Positions 13,774-63,438 of a stretch of 64,000 nt of DNA are shown here, piece by piece (the first letter of the stretch is position 1; every line of letters starts with the position of its first letter). A program made the translations under genes and the position numbers. The DNA is from an uncultured Ardenticatenaceae bacterium (lineage in GTDB: Bacteria > Chloroflexota > Anaerolineae > Promineifilales > Promineifilaceae): contig CAZOGK010000008.1 of assembly GCA_964579295.1 (NCBI GenBank), positions 4,974-68,973 on the forward strand, read 5' to 3'. Below the pieces are notes generated by a model. It saw nothing but the letters and a program-made list of their open reading frames with translations. It searched no databases and was not told where the DNA came from.

Positions 13774-14871
13774 CTAATTCTCCTGAGCCGGTGAGTTGTC
13801 TGCTGGTAGCTGGCCGTTTGCATGTGCCAGCCTGCCGTCAAGTTGATTGGTCATGATCAGCTCGGCAGGAAGCGGCCGGAAGCCAAGCTGTAGATTAAGC
13901 TGGTACATCGGGTTGTTTTCCTCGTTGCCGGTGTCCACCGTGACGGCGCCGTAGGCGCGCGCAAACGAGAGGGCGTTGGCCTTCATGGCCGTCGCCACGC
14001 CGCGGCGGCGATGGCTGCGCTTGACGCCGGTAAAGCCGGTACCCAGGCGCCGGTCGTCGGTCAGGTCACGCCAGAGGACGCTGAGGCCCACGTACTCGTC
14101 GCCGTCCACGGCGACGAACCAGCCTTCGGGCAGCAGGTTGGGCATCCCCAACGTCTGCTGGTCGTAGACCTCGAACTCCACTTTCGTCACTTCGTCAATC
14201 GACGGGACATCCCTTTCGACTTCGGCCTCCAGCTCGTACATGCGGCGCTTCCAGTCCGGGTCGCGCTGCATCAGCTCGGCCAGGGTAACAACCCGGATTC
14301 CCGCGCGCTCGGCCGCAGCAATCTTCTCGGCAAACGGCGCCGGGTCGAACGTCTGCAAGTCGATGCGCGACATCTGTTCGCGCATGCGCAGCATGAAGCC
14401 CCGCTTCTGCAGGAAGTCGAGCGCCCGCGGGCGGTTCTCCCGCGTAAAGGTCACCAGCTCGGCCGGCTGGCGTTCGTCGAGCTGCTGCCGCAAGTAGTCC
14501 CACAAGGCGCGGCCGTAGCCCTTGCCCTGCTCGTCGGGATGGACGCCAACCCAGATATAGTAACGGTCGGGATGATAGGCCCAGTCGAGGTGGCCGTAGG
14601 AGCCATAGGCGACCATCTCATCATCCTGTTCCACGACGTAGCGACGGAAGAGATACTGAGGGTCGCGGTTCAGGTCCCAGTGCCGCCAGGAGTCGGCCGA
14701 CTCCGGGAAATCGGGGTCAATGGCGTTGTTAATCGCCACGACGCGGCTGTAGTCTGAGCTGGCGCCAAAGTCGAACGGGCGCACGCGCACGGCGGCGCCG
14801 CTGCGCAGGCTGAGTGTCTCGCCCTGAGTCGCCGCGCGGGGCAGGTCGCTACTGGTCTGTTCGCTAATCAT
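13774..14871 (-). CDS. Double-GNAT N-acetyltransferase (paralogue 3)
   Basis: Motifs VHPDEQGKGYGRALWDYL, VKRSHRRRGVATAMK and NEENNPMYQLNLQLGF. It has the same TAGCCATG junction with its upstream gene as paralogue 2. Confidence 0.8.
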   Translation of the reverse strand: MISEQTSSDLPRAATQGETLSLRSGAAVRVRPFDFGASSDYSRVVAINNAIDPDFPESADSWRHWDLNRDPQYLFRRYVVEQDDEMVAYGSYGHLDWAYHPDRYYIWVGVHPDEQGKGYGRALWDYLRQQLDERQPAELVTFTRENRPRALDFLQKRGFMLRMREQMSRIDLQTFDPAPFAEKIAAAERAGIRVVTLAELMQRDPDWKRRMYELEAEVERDVPSIDEVTKVEFEVYDQQTLGMPNLLPEGWFVAVDGDEYVGLSVLWRDLTDDRRLGTGFTGVKRSHRRRGVATAMKANALSFARAYGAVTVDTGNEENNPMYQLNLQLGFRPLPAELIMTNQLDGRLAHANGQLPADNSPAQEN

Positions 14872-14873
14872 GG

Positions 14874-15572
14874 CTACTTTTCCTCATCTTGATGTCGTTC
14901 TTCAGGTCGGGAAGGGCGGACGCCGAGGGCGGCCAGGGCCGCCGGCACGTCCAGGCCGGGCCGATAGTGCACGGCGTGCATACCAATGGCCTGGGCGGCG
15001 CCGACGTTGGCGGCGCTATCGTCGATAAAGACAGCCTCCGCGGGCTGCCGCCCGAGTCGGTCCAGGGTCAAGAGATAGATTTGTTCATCTGGTTTCATGA
15101 CTTTCTCCTCAGCCGAGACCACGATCAGGTCGAAGTCGCCGGCTATCGGGTAGGTCCGCTCGAGGCTCACACGCAGACTGTCATTGAAATTGCTGATGAT
15201 CGCCGTCTGGTATTGGGGTCGAAGCGAGCGAATATACGCTACCAATTCCTCGTCAAGGGCATCGCCGGCCCAGAAGTCGCTGCGAAAAGCGGCAAGCCGC
15301 TCTTCGTCAAGCTCTAGCTGGGCGGCCACGTCCTGCCACAAAGCGGCTTCTGTCATGCGCCCTAGCTGCGCCCGTAGGCCGGCCGTGCTGTGAAAGACGA
15401 GCCATTCTGCCTGGCCCGGCTGCAGCGCCAGCTCACGTTCCCAGCGTTGCCGGCCGCTCCAATCATGGGTACGGACCAGCACGCCGCCGACGTCGAAGAT
15501 GACCGCCCGGATGCCGGACGCAGACTCGCTGTAATTAGCGTGTGACATGATTTGCCTTGTGCCGCCTGTCAT
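14874..15572 (-). CDS. HAD-superfamily hydrolase (subfamily IA-like)
   Basis: Motif I is AVIFDVGGVLV, with Gly in place of the second Asp. Later blocks are ISNF and FIDDSAANV. GGAG lies 7 nt upstream of ATG 15572. ATG 15548 is an alternative start. Confidence 0.7.
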   Translation of the reverse strand: MTGGTRQIMSHANYSESASGIRAVIFDVGGVLVRTHDWSGRQRWERELALQPGQAEWLVFHSTAGLRAQLGRMTEAALWQDVAAQLELDEERLAAFRSDFWAGDALDEELVAYIRSLRPQYQTAIISNFNDSLRVSLERTYPIAGDFDLIVVSAEEKVMKPDEQIYLLTLDRLGRQPAEAVFIDDSAANVGAAQAIGMHAVHYRPGLDVPAALAALGVRPSRPEERHQDEEK

Positions 15573-15640
15573 TCAGGCGCTCCATCTCAACGACTGATGG
15601 CATCATGATGGTCATCTCCTGACTCACGGGGCGCCCAAAC

Positions 15641-15686
15641 AAAAAAGGACGCCGCTCCTGTCTCTCCAGGCGCCGGCGTCCTTTTT
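15641..15686. terminator. Bidirectional intrinsic terminator
   Basis: A6, GGACGCCG stem, 19-nt loop, CGGCGTCC stem, T5. A U-run follows the hairpin on both strands. Confidence 0.7.
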
Positions 15687-15724
15687 CGGGTCGGCTGGCG
15701 CGGGTCGCGCCAGCAAGATGGATC

Positions 15725-15761
15725 AAAAAGGGCCGCAGGCACCTGGTGGTGCGTGCGGCCC
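15725..15761 (-). terminator. Intrinsic terminator just after the 36-codon sORF
   Basis: Minus strand reads GGGCCGCAcGCACC acca GGTGCcTGCGGCCC, a 13-bp stem with one mismatch, followed by TTTTT. Confidence 0.7.
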
Positions 15762-15783
15762 TGACATTCACGGAATCGTTATG

Positions 15784-15894
15784 TCAACAGCGCGCAAGCG
15801 CACCACTCCCAGGCAGGGGGTAATCTCCGCCGGCACGGCTGCCGACGGCGGTGATGAAGTGACGGGTGTGGTCATTCACCTGGTACGCCTCCAT
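15784..15894 (-). CDS. Candidate 36-aa small ORF / leader peptide (MEAYQVNDHTRHFITAVGSRAGGDYPLPGSGALARC)
   Basis: GAGG, 6 nt, then ATG. About three quarters of codons end in G/C, like real genes here. It has its own promoter and terminator. It falls below the 60-aa cutoff of the ORF track. Confidence 0.35.
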   Translation of the reverse strand: MEAYQVNDHTRHFITAVGSRAGGDYPLPGSGALARC

Positions 15895-15939
15895 GCAAAA
15901 CCTCACAATACTGCTGCGCACAATCGCGCTAACCCAGAC

Positions 15940-15969
15940 ACTTTAGCATAGCCGTGGCGCGGCTGTCAA
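15940..15969 (-). promoter_or_regulatory. Near-consensus sigma-70 promoter with extended -10
   Basis: Minus strand reads TTGACA, 18 nt, TAAAGT, with TGc immediately upstream of the -10. Confidence 0.55.
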
Positions 15970-16027
15970 GAGGGCCCTGGAATTTGTGTGACTGTCTGGG
16001 ACTCACAGGGGTAGGAGGTGAAAAGTA

Positions 16028-16079
16028 GAACGTTGAAAGCGGCTTTCTTCCAGCCTCTTACTTCCAGCTTTCAACGTTC
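16028..16079 (-). terminator. 13-bp perfect inverted repeat 12 nt downstream of the stop of gene 16091-17797
   Basis: GAACGTTGAAAGC, 26-nt loop, GCTTTCAACGTTC. On the minus strand it is followed by TACTTTTC. The loop holds a direct repeat GCTGGAAG x2. Confidence 0.45.
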
Positions 16080-16090
16080 AATTCCCCAGC

Positions 16091-17797
16091 TCACTCATCC
16101 AACAAAATCACCGGCTCCTGGTAATAGCGCAGCCGGCTGCGCGCCAACTTCTGGGCCAGGAAGTCGTTGAACCAGGCGCGCTTGGCGGGGAGGGGCTCGT
16201 CGGCGCGCAGCCGGTCCAGGTCGGCGTTGAGCCGCAAGATGCGGCCGGGGATCACAAATCGTGTCAGGCCGGCCGGCAGCAAGCGCCCGTGGCTGGCCGT
16301 CTCGAATACCTGCTCTGGCGCAAACTGCGGAAAGACGGCGACAGCCGCCATCTCCGGGAACTGGCCGCGCAGGCGTTCAATCTCTGTAACCAGCGTGCGC
16401 TCCACGTCGCCCCACATCGTGTAGCGCGCCACAATCTCGTTCAATACCGCCAGCCTGTCGGCCCCGGCGCCGGCGGCGGCCAGCGTCGCCTGCCCATCTC
16501 GGTCCAGGAAGAAACAGAGACCGGCGCCCTCGTTCAGGGCGCTTTGCGCGGCGTCCACGTGCATGGGGCAGAGCGTCAGGCCGGGGACCGTTCCTAGCGC
16601 GGCCAGCAGCTCTGCGACCGGCCGGTCACTGGAGATAACGTGGTACCAGGTATGTAGCTGGAAGTCATCGCGCTGCGCGTCGACCACCTGCACGATGACG
16701 TGCGGGCAGCCGATTCGCTGCAGCGCCGTAAAGCGCGTGGCGCCGTCGAGAATGATATAGCGCTCGTTCCAGTAGGTGACGATGGGCGGGTTAATCAGCC
16801 GGCTCTCCTGTTCCAGCCGCTCGGCCAGGCGGCTGACGCGCTTCTCGTCAATCTGCTCGTGCGGCGAGACCTGCTCAGCCGGCACAACTTCCAGCGACAG
16901 CGTTTCGCTGGGCCGCTTCACGCGCAGCAGCTCGACAACCTGCCGCACCACCGCCAGCACGTCCTCGCGGCGCCGGCTGCCGATGATGCGCGTCACGTGC
17001 GGCGCCAGCAGCACGCGCGGGTGCTGCCGCACGCGCTCGCTCGCCGCGCCGGCAGTGACGCCGGCCGGAAGCTGGGACAGCGCCGCGCCGGCAATCTGCC
17101 CGCTGTCCAGCGCCCTCAGCAGCGCTTCGTCGTCCACCAGGTCGGTGTGCCCGGTGTTGACCAGGAAGGCATGGGGCTGCATCTGCGCCAATTGCGGGGC
17201 GCCAATGATGGCTTCCGTTTCGGTCGTGAAGGGCACATGCAGGCTAACAAAATCCGACCGCTGCAGCAAATCGTGGAAGTCTGCCTGGGCCACACCGGCC
17301 GCCAGCGCCAGCTCTGGCGTCAGGCGCGGCTGGTTGACCATGACCTGCATGTCGAAAGCCAGCGCGCGCCGGCCTACCTCACGGCCAATCCCGCCAAAGC
17401 CGACGATGCCCAGCGTCTTGCCCGCCAGGCCGGAGCCCGACTCGTCCTGGATAGCCAGCCGCAGCATGAAGGCCAGCGTATGCTCGGCAATTGCCACGGC
17501 GTTGCTGCCGCGGATATTGCATACTTCCACGCCCATCGTGCGCGCCGCGGTCACGTCCACGTTGTCCAGGCGCGGGCTGAGCGAGCCGATGACCCGTAGG
17601 TCCAGGCCCTCCTCGATGACGTCGTGCGTGATCGTCGCCTCCGGGCCGACAATGAGCGCGTGGTAGTCGCCAATGACCCGCTGGATTTCGGCGTCGGGCA
17701 GGCCCGGCCGCACGTCGACGGCGGCCACGGCCTGCAGCAGGCGCAGCGCCTCTTCGTCAAGCGCTTCACAGACGAGGATGCGTTGCGGCTGGGTCAT
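16091..17797 (-). CDS. Fusion protein: D-2-hydroxyacid (phosphoglycerate) dehydrogenase-like domain plus ParB/sulfiredoxin-like domain plus unknown C-terminal region
   Basis: The N-terminal half has the Rossmann motif GIVGFGGIGREVG and AEHTLAFML. The usual NxARG and LDVF..EP blocks read VNTGHTDLVD and GAALSQLP. The middle region LINPPIVTYWNERYIILDGATRFTALQRIG resembles the ParB/Srx DGxxR core. Confidence 0.6.
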   Translation of the reverse strand: MTQPQRILVCEALDEEALRLLQAVAAVDVRPGLPDAEIQRVIGDYHALIVGPEATITHDVIEEGLDLRVIGSLSPRLDNVDVTAARTMGVEVCNIRGSNAVAIAEHTLAFMLRLAIQDESGSGLAGKTLGIVGFGGIGREVGRRALAFDMQVMVNQPRLTPELALAAGVAQADFHDLLQRSDFVSLHVPFTTETEAIIGAPQLAQMQPHAFLVNTGHTDLVDDEALLRALDSGQIAGAALSQLPAGVTAGAASERVRQHPRVLLAPHVTRIIGSRRREDVLAVVRQVVELLRVKRPSETLSLEVVPAEQVSPHEQIDEKRVSRLAERLEQESRLINPPIVTYWNERYIILDGATRFTALQRIGCPHVIVQVVDAQRDDFQLHTWYHVISSDRPVAELLAALGTVPGLTLCPMHVDAAQSALNEGAGLCFFLDRDGQATLAAAGAGADRLAVLNEIVARYTMWGDVERTLVTEIERLRGQFPEMAAVAVFPQFAPEQVFETASHGRLLPAGLTRFVIPGRILRLNADLDRLRADEPLPAKRAWFNDFLAQKLARSRLRYYQEPVILLDE

Positions 17798-63309: not shown

Positions 63310-63332
63310 GGAACCAACAAACCTACCTTATG

Positions 63333-63424
63333 CGCACAGGGAGCCGGGGTTAGCCCGGCTGAGAGGGTGGCCGTCTGCCGCCGACCTGCGAACCTGATCC
63401 GGGTAATGCCGGCGTAGGGATGTG
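63333..63424 (+). promoter_or_regulatory. TPP (THI-box) riboswitch
   Basis: GGGGUUAGCCCGGCUGAGAGGG...ACCUGCGAACCUGAUCCGGGUAAUGCCGGCGUAGGGA matches the conserved CUGAGA and ACCUGAUC..GGUAAUGCC.GCGUAGGGA cores. Confidence 0.9.
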
Positions 63425-63438
63425 AGAACATGCTTACG

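Follow-up and report, generated by a model that had tools for sequence, protein, structure and literature searches.

In this study, we analysed 64,000 nt of DNA (hereafter the window) from an uncultured Ardenticatenaceae bacterium of the phylum Chloroflexota (contig CAZOGK010000008.1), in which the leader of an operon for a HAD-IA phosphatase, three tandem-GNAT proteins and a C45 acyltransferase/hydrolase probably acts as a ribosome-dependent (leader-peptide) transcription attenuator built from six RNA segments. An earlier sequence-only reading had proposed a leader-peptide attenuator at this place, with a small open reading frame (sORF), two tandem terminators and one antiterminator pairing. 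The conservation of the sORF and of the complementary segments across 17 leaders supports that proposal as far as comparison of sequences can carry it. All leader coordinates refer to the minus strand of the window, and the parts of the leader are as follows.

15940..15969 (-), promoter, with the -35 box TTGACA at 15969-15964, an 18-nt spacer and the extended -10 box TGcTAAAGT at 15948-15940.
15879..15892 (-), segment 1, the Shine-Dalgarno (SD) sequence GGAGG with CGUACCAGG, the putative anti-antiterminator strand that would pair with segment 2.
15784..15879 (-), leader sORF, from GTG at 15879 to TGA at 15786-15784 (31 codons), or 36 codons from an in-frame ATG at 15894.
15823..15828 (-), candidate stall codons GGA-GAT (Gly18-Asp19), rare codons after mostly optimal ones.
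15788..15813 (-), segment 2, the putative antiterminator strand at the 3' end of the sORF, CCUGGGAGUGGUGCGCUUGCGCGCUG.
15778..15787 (-), invariant 10-mer TTGACATAAC, which in the window contains the sORF stop TGA.
15725..15761 (-), terminator T1, with segment 3 at 15761-15742 and segment 4 at 15745-15725, including a T5 run.
15641..15687 (-), terminator T2, with segment 5 at 15687-15669 (A-tract and 5' arm) and segment 6 at 15658-15641, including a T6 run.

The comparison covers 17 representative leaders (that of the window and 16 others) in nine clades, all carried by Chloroflexota metagenome-assembled genomes (MAGs) or metagenome contigs, and the identity of the neighbouring HAD proteins goes down to 58%. 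Loci were gathered from the contigs of HAD homologues, which belong to Anaerolineae-type Chloroflexota (MAGs of the Promineifilaceae, Ardenticatenaceae and Sulfomarinibacteraceae), and by an exact-pattern scan, run once on genome and once on metagenome collections, whose motif came from the first three loci. Two pattern matches, L011 and L012, lay within coding sequence and were discarded as false positives. Near-identical leader-plus-HAD copies stood on two contigs of one MAG (L013 and L017; JAAYYY010000269 and JAAYYY010000316), which may reflect either a genuine duplication or a mixture of strains in the bin. Because plain MAFFT alignment of whole leaders put the 5' arm of T1 one column out of register in the GC-rich clade, it was dropped in favour of motif-anchored blocks; the resulting alignment, A3, is an ungapped alignment of five blocks joined by NNN, whose 121 columns were retained by MAFFT.

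Three mutually similar conserved stretches recur in the leaders, namely GGAGACGCAC (segment 1, including the SD sequence), GCAGCGCAC (segment 3, the 5' arm of T1) and GGACGCAGG (segment 5, the 5' arm of T2), together with their complements GUGCGUCUGCC (segment 2, the 3' end of the sORF), CCUGCGGCC-U(n) (segment 4) and CCUGCGUCC-U(n) (segment 6). These would permit two mutually exclusive folds: an OFF fold in which segment 1 pairs with 2 (1:2), 3 with 4 (T1) and 5 with 6 (T2), and an ON fold in which 2 pairs with 3 and 4 with 5, leaving segment 6 single-stranded. The T1 hairpin, GGGCCGCA-C-GCACC-ACCA-GGTGC-C-TGCGGCCC followed by T5, has 13 bp with one C.C mismatch and begins 22 nt past the sORF stop, just as first described. 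It has a predicted energy of -23.6 kcal/mol in the window and of -18 to -26 kcal/mol across the leaders and is present in all 17, its outer helix being 97% and its inner helix 85% paired, with compensatory changes at five pairs. T2 (15686-15641; -23.7 kcal/mol), which had likewise been noticed as a second hairpin with a T6 run reaching 15641, is predicted by RNAalifold and occurs in 16 of the 17 leaders, with an uninterrupted U-tract in 14. Both terminators were missed by a consensus terminator scan because their loops exceed its 8-nt limit.

Each of the three alternative helices was assessed on its own. The 1:2 duplex is worth -23.6 kcal/mol in the window; ten of its columns are 79% paired across the 17 leaders versus at most 45% when the partners are slid, six pairs change on both sides, and the helix is clear in 11-13 of the 17 leaders and predicted by RNAalifold on full leaders. 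The 2:3 duplex has a predicted energy of -24.5 kcal/mol in the window; over all 17 leaders the values span -17 to -28 kcal/mol and are close to those of T1. Its core is 86% paired versus at most 48% slid. The sequence-only reading had noted the complementarity of 15813-15799 with 15753-15742; the complementarity is there, but it takes in the whole 5' arm of T1 rather than 12 bp, and conservation of the complementary segments in related genomes, a check set beforehand, was found in every leader. The 4:5 duplex, between the T1 3' arm with its U-tract and the T2 5' arm, is worth -21.9 kcal/mol in the window (z -2.9) and -16 to -23.5 kcal/mol across 16 leaders, with z between -2 and -4.9 in 15 and p <= 0.007 in 14 of them; thirteen columns are 83% paired, and five pairs covary. 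In 15 of 16 leaders, T1 leaves 2-8 of the 13-18 segment 4 bases of this helix unpaired, as loop or U-tract bases, so that 4:5 is no mere by-product of the similarity of T1 and T2 in those 15. Segment 2 was also tried as a direct antiterminator of T2, and its pairing with segment 5 was no better than in shuffles (z +1.2 to -2.0), which favours the pairing of segment 4 with segment 5. Through that pairing T2 would be coupled to T1 and would not be a separate obstacle, which amends the part first assigned to it.

Covariation over the whole of A3 points the same way for both folds. Standard pairs fill 86.8% of the cells of the OFF pairs versus 30-42% with the partners slid by 1-3 columns, and 84.3% of those of the ON pairs versus 19-48%. 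Both sides change at 11 OFF pairs (shuffled mean 6.2; 2 of 500 shuffles reach 11) and at nine ON pairs, five of them in helix 4:5 (shuffled mean 4.7; 2 of 500 reach 9), and the covariation score was reached by 0 of 500 shuffles in either case. One change runs through four segments at once: the clade of L002, L013 and L017 has U, A, U and A in segments 1, 2, 3 and 4 where the other leaders have C, G, C and G. Arms also pair better with their own partners than with those of other clades, at a mean of -22.1 versus -17.8 kcal/mol for 2:3 (cognate better in 197 of 218 comparisons) and of -23.1 versus -18.8 kcal/mol for 4:5 (183 of 218). With natural sequences from segment 2 to segment 5, leaving out segments 1 and 6, RNAalifold returned 2:3 and 4:5 rather than T1 (18 pairs, seven compensatory); from the SD sequence to T2 it returned 1:2, T2 and part of T1 (23 pairs, 10 compensatory). 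A 306-nt stretch folds at -156 kcal/mol (z = -6.7), which none of 100 shuffles matched.

The sORF is kept in all 17 leaders as an ORF of 23-31 codons, so that its conservation in related genomes, the other check set beforehand, extends over all nine clades. The last GGAG or GAGG lies 7-13 nt before the start in 15 of them (19 nt in L006, 2 nt in L025). Across the 17 leaders the frame has no in-frame stop versus 28 and 21 in the other two; a permissive shuffle test gave an open frame at 0.08-0.2 per leader, with a product over the nine clades of about 6e-9. The frame relative to the nucleotides of segment 2 is identical in 17 of 17, and the stop falls 14-20 nt past the start of the segment 2 core. 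As for the start codon, the 36-codon ORF first described (GAGG, 6 nt, ATG at 15894, ending at TGA 15786-15784) is present, but the start common to all clades is the GTG at 15879; the equivalent of ATG 15894 shares the sORF frame in the window clade but not in L013/L017, and in L018 a stop codon rules it out. In L013 (2854-2970) and L017 the upstream ATG is shifted by +1 and opens a 38-codon ORF; because this ends at a TAA within TTGACATAAC, ribosomes from either ATG would stop at the 10-mer.

Codon use divides the sORF in two. The gene-like GC3 reported earlier holds for the first 17 codons from GTG 15879 (14 of 17 end in G/C) but is lost over the whole ORF, for which GC1/2/3 over 31 codons are 0.71/0.61/0.68 versus 0.70/0.44/0.81 in neighbouring genes. 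In the window, 14 of these first 17 codons are preferred ones (relative use >= 0.7). They are followed by GGA-GAT, with relative use of 0.09 and 0.24 in neighbouring genes, and then by rare codons within segment 2, where the sequence is set by RNA pairing. At 13-22 nt before the segment 2 core, 15 of the 17 leaders have an Asp codon, mostly GAT and mostly beside Gly, and from this place and the rarity of GGA-GAT we infer that these two codons may be a stall site. We had also considered amino-acid sensing through codon runs and dropped it, as no run occurs in the leader peptides: there is no consistently repeated amino acid in them, and a single Gly-Asp is their sole conserved feature.

These properties bear on a different explanation, that the sORF is a gene in its own right for a small protein or precursor peptide, having its own promoter and double terminator, and that its peptide works with or is modified by the GNAT and C45 proteins, the operon being served by constitutive leak-through. 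The conserved synteny with GNAT and C45 genes and the conservation of the ORF as an ORF would suit such a gene, and in operons for ribosomally synthesized and post-translationally modified peptides partial terminators are known after precursor genes. We nevertheless consider it improbable. Between the window and L001 the substitutions are spread 5/4/5 over codon positions 1/2/3 (hand count, alignment A1), which is not the mark of purifying selection; the peptide has no conserved core, no Cys/Ser/Thr pattern and no match in a Pfam search; its best-kept codons are rare ones, constrained as nucleotides to pair with T1; and the covariation of segment 2 with segments 1 and 3, and of segment 4 with segment 5, would be left unexplained. 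The pattern fits an ORF that needs to be translated while its product matters little.

The surroundings of the leader agree with a regulatory element that belongs to the operon. The promoter sequence TTGACA-18 nt-TGcTAAAGT at 15969-15940 is present as had been read and is the sole promoter-like match in the 2.5 kb from 14500 to 17000 (shuffles give 0.3); 15 of the 17 leaders keep TTGAC-N17/18-TATGCTAAAGT, always at the same distance. A scan of the window, L015, L018 and L023 found no promoter-like site between T2 and the HAD gene, in agreement with the earlier statement that no convincing promoter lies there. The leader stands invariably directly 5' of the HAD-GNAT operon, every true match having the same orientation as the HAD gene. 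The genes 5' of it vary (2-Hacid_dh, S8 peptidase, transposase-like, histidine kinase, SpoIIE and solute-binding protein), so the leader travels with the operon and not with its upstream neighbour. We conclude that the orphan promoter is in all likelihood the operon promoter and that operon expression would need read-through of the terminators; the constant HAD-GNAT linkage and the lack of a promoter-like site after T2 in the scanned loci support the dependence on read-through that had been suggested before.

Three HAD loci (L027, L028 and L029) have no leader. In L027 and L029 the HAD gene comes directly after a PALP-2-Hacid_dh fusion and there are no GNAT genes. L028 (2440-2510) has the same HAD-GNAT operon without an attenuator, and about 25 nt before its HAD ribosome-binding site (RBS) there is, as read by eye, a similar promoter-like sequence, TTGCCT-18 nt-TGATACAGT. 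The leader may have arisen by insertion or duplication between promoter and RBS, or may have been deleted in the L028 lineage. The L028 RBS, GGGAGACGCATG, matches segment 1 (GGAGACGCA).

The position of a translating ribosome was modelled by folding the leaders with the ribosome-covered nucleotides masked. In nascent transcripts reaching to segment 3, helix 2:3 formed in 17 of 17 predicted folds with the ribosome covering everything from the SD sequence to codon 17, and was lost in 13 of 17 with the ribosome at the stop codon, in accordance with the earlier idea that a ribosome at the sORF stop would mask the antiterminator. In transcripts reaching to segment 5, 2:3 with 4:5 was the minimum-energy fold in 11 of 16. 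On this basis we propose the following course of events. Transcription would start about 7 nt past the -10 box at 15940 and would meet two intrinsic terminators before the operon. In the OFF state, segment 1 (the SD region) would be held by segment 2, segments 3 and 4 would form T1, and segments 5 and 6 would form T2. In the ON state, segment 2 would take segment 3, the freed segment 4 would take segment 5 once that is made, segment 6 would be left without a partner, and neither terminator would form. The single decision would be where the ribosome stands on the sORF when the polymerase has made segment 3. A ribosome at the last codons or the stop would cover segment 2 and let T1 and T2 form; with no ribosome, 1:2 would form first, with the same termination outcome; and a ribosome that opens the SD region and then lags or stalls in codons 1 to about 19 would leave segment 2 to capture segment 3, so that both terminators are read through. 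The candidate site for such a stall is the conserved pair of rare Gly-Asp codons, about the last position at which a ribosome would leave segment 2 free. The signal would be slowed translation or the scarcity of a single charged tRNA. With T2 added, termination in the OFF state would be multiplied at no cost to induction.

The 10-mer TTGACATAAC is identical in 15 of the 17 leaders, in six of which the stop codon has another frame or position: some leaders have the sORF stop within it, and others have that stop in another frame, 3-9 nt upstream. It has stop codons in two frames, and the third is closed just upstream. No pairing partner consistent across the leaders was found for it, and a part as a promoter was rejected, since by eye no -10 box stands at 16-18 nt in any leader. 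It may possibly be the seed of a small RNA (sRNA), a site where a factor binds, or a pause site for the polymerase, which would lie about 11 nt past the 1:2 helix.

The 10-mer also speaks for a factor-dependent switch, in which the choice between the helices would fall to a protein, small RNA or ligand bound to the leader, perhaps at the invariant single-stranded UUGACAUAAC, and translation of the sORF would be incidental or would merely tune the response. It is the most conserved stretch of the leader, is explained by neither coding nor pairing and sits in the apical loop of the 2:3 helix, and the poor conservation of the peptide sequence fits as well. We regard such a switch as unlikely, if somewhat less so than a peptide gene: it does not need an ORF, an SD sequence, an invariant frame or a stop just past segment 2, yet all of these are kept in 17 of 17 leaders, and L025 has lost the 10-mer yet keeps the sORF, the pairings, T1 and T2. 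The region between segments 1 and 2 is, besides, too variable for an aptamer, and no Rfam family matches the leader. With Rfam release 15 at gathering scores, the only match in the whole window was a thiamine pyrophosphate riboswitch elsewhere, and a permissive search of 15400-16200 gave at best 16.9 bits against a gathering score of 40 (E = 0.28). That riboswitch aptamer is full length, at window 63327-63437 (+), with 67.7 bits against a gathering score of 54.3 (E = 3.8e-11). A tRNA/tmRNA search of the leader stretch gave no match, and no further copy of the leader was found in the 64-kb window.

A mainly trans-acting role of the terminated leader, of about 210 or 290 nt, as an sRNA with UUGACAUAAC as its seed is compatible with the attenuator model, and the strong promoter, the efficient-looking terminators and the conserved unpaired 10-mer would serve it well. 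There is precedent for sRNAs derived from attenuators in rnTrpL of Sinorhizobium (PMC7968998). We think such a role very improbable, given that no conserved target came to light and that the leader is strictly linked in cis to one operon, as a cis element would be. The sole recurrent complement of the 10-mer was the sequence coding for the FDVGG motif of HAD, which involves G-U pairs and was rejected as a probable chance match.

Several observations weigh against the attenuator model or narrow what it can claim. Helix 1:2 is weak or displaced in L008, L010, L016 and L023; L010 has no recognizable T2, and the U-tract of T2 is interrupted in L018 and L024. The leader peptide drifts, with 39% column identity and the even spread of substitutions given above, and has no run of a single amino acid; with neither a codon run nor a well-conserved peptide, no sensed molecule can be named. 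The 10-mer plays no role in the model. Full-length minimum-energy folds mostly keep T1 and T2 even with the masked ribosome in place, so that ON, as in classical attenuators, has to be reached kinetically during transcription. In nascent RNA without a ribosome, 2:3 often beats 1:2 at equilibrium, and the branch in which no translation means OFF consequently depends on folding order. Finally, block alignment A3 was made by ourselves through motif anchoring, the sample is small (17 sequences in nine clades) with paired columns that are mostly conserved rather than covarying, and related sequences without structure can exceed shuffle controls.

Leader-peptide attenuation is a textbook mechanism, and what is known of it comes almost wholly from Proteobacteria, Firmicutes and Actinobacteria. 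Its logic is not new here; what appears to be new is the proposed relay between two terminators. If the model is correct, Chloroflexota possess a well-conserved leader-peptide attenuator of their own. Escherichia coli trpL and its relatives are the classical leader-peptide attenuators of amino-acid operons (PMC4191407, PMC3082878). Like trpL, the present leader has a short ORF, an intrinsic terminator before the structural genes and predicted overlapping 1:2, 2:3 and 3:4 pairings; a ribosome at the stop would mask segment 2, and the untranslated leader is predicted to be super-attenuated. Unlike trpL, it lacks a run of codons for one amino acid, its segment 1 overlaps the SD sequence rather than lying inside the ORF, two terminators are joined by a fourth and a fifth pairing, and the HAD-GNAT operon is no recognizable operon for amino-acid biosynthesis.

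Ribosome-mediated attenuators without codon runs have been described in bmrB-bmrCD of Bacillus subtilis (PMC4191407) and in ermK and mef/mel (PMC5418344, PMC4335068), and rare codons occur in the leader ORF of bmrB too (PMC4191407). With these systems our leader shares the lack of a codon run, the predicted anti-antiterminator, antiterminator and terminator helices and the read-through expected from a slowed ribosome. It differs from bmrCD, ermK and mef/mel in its phylum, Chloroflexota, and in the absence of a recognized resistance-type gene downstream, the GNATs being only generic or rimI-like. The ermK leader, too, is said to have two terminators. In the tandem attenuators of Salmonella mgtCBR, each has its own ORF and signal, and the two are independent and additive (PMC3641672); both systems have a long leader with at least two points of attenuation and at least two short ORFs, whereas here one ORF precedes both terminators, T2 is coupled to T1 by base pairing and the second short ORF (uORF2, see below) comes after T2.

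In the literature covered, which was incomplete, for ermK among others, we found no description of a terminator whose 3' arm is the antiterminator of the following terminator, and no paper, under the same incomplete coverage, on such a leader in Chloroflexota. A bolder form of the model, which we advance tentatively as a proposition that tips slightly towards doubt, is that of a six-segment 'domino' attenuator: one decision on ribosome position would be relayed by strand exchange (2:3, then 4:5) through two terminators, giving a tight OFF state and full induction from a single sensor. The leader would then represent a so far undescribed family of cis-regulatory RNAs in Anaerolineae-type Chloroflexota, a sensor of slowed translation at the conserved Gly-Asp, with UUGACAUAAC as a programmed pause or factor site synchronizing polymerase and ribosome. 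If so, the 3' arm of the first terminator doubles as antiterminator of the second, and serial terminators would widen the dynamic range of one sensor without a second sensor, a design principle of interest for RNA synthetic biology. The HAD-GNAT-C45 operon would also be marked as tightly conditionally expressed, which offers a handle on its function.

Three further features lie in or just after the leader.

15916..15929 (-), 5' hairpin P0, just past the presumed transcription start.
15694..15714 (-), spacer hairpin GCUGGCGCG-ACC-CGCGCCAGC between T1 and T2, in GC-rich clades only.
15535..15606 (-), with an alternative start at 15615, uORF2 (MMPSVVEMERLNDRRHKANHVTR, then stop), overlapping the probable HAD start ATG 15548.

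A hairpin stands at the P0 position in most leaders, with differing sequences. The middle hairpin of the earlier description is present, at a size of 9 bp and not 8 bp; elsewhere the spacer between T1 and T2 measures about 4 to 48 nt, and no ORF lies in it. Next to the upstream operon, a perfect 13-bp inverted repeat GAACGTTGAAAGC...GCTTTCAACGTTC with a 26-nt loop, followed by TACTTTTC, occupies window 16028-16079 (-) immediately 3' of the stop of a 568-aa gene, and is probably a terminator that insulates the leader promoter from that operon. In L025, an Ardenticatenaceae leader, a third terminator-like hairpin CCTCCCGGAGG...CCTCCGGGAGGC with T6 follows T2 (2380-2500). Its 5' arm lies within a uORF (MNGGTPPRMKANLPEVINSRFAA, then stop), and it could be a further checkpoint opened by translation.

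The operon proteins received only generic names from Pfam, NCBIfam and the PDB. NCBIfam gave a generic HAD-IA, weak rimI-like GNAT matches and a C45 proenzyme, with no recognizable resistance determinant, and neither of the PDB neighbours, Orf14 of the clavulanate cluster and isopenicillin-N acyltransferase, is close enough to point to a pathway. The operons of relatives contain tandem GNAT genes, often also a C45, ABC transporter or MFS gene. Upstream in the same orientation are genes for a pyridoxal-phosphate-dependent dehydratase and for the 568-aa fusion protein (window 16091-17797 (-)), in which a phosphoglycerate-dehydrogenase-like part is joined to an SbnI/SerK-like (phosphoserine-forming) part. 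This fusion, and the order PALP-2-Hacid_dh then HAD in L027 and L029, hint that the HAD enzyme is tied to serine/phosphoserine-type metabolism.

The HAD gene most likely begins at ATG 15548 and not at 15572, where it had first been placed, because most of its homologues are about 225 aa or shorter. uORF2 lies after T2, and its stop is 11 nt beyond this probable HAD start; it may be translationally coupled to the HAD gene. Its peptide is kept in GC-rich clades (L001, L002 and L013/L017) with many synonymous changes, amounting to six of 13 codon changes between the window and L001 (hand count, alignment A1), and it is absent from low-GC clades, whose HAD protein starts MIKAIIFD. In L015 (700-830) and L016, the spacer between T2 and the HAD gene contains the direct repeats GGCAAGT and GCAGGTTTGCA together with CTTGCA complements, which can fold as a long imperfect hairpin just 5' of the HAD RBS.

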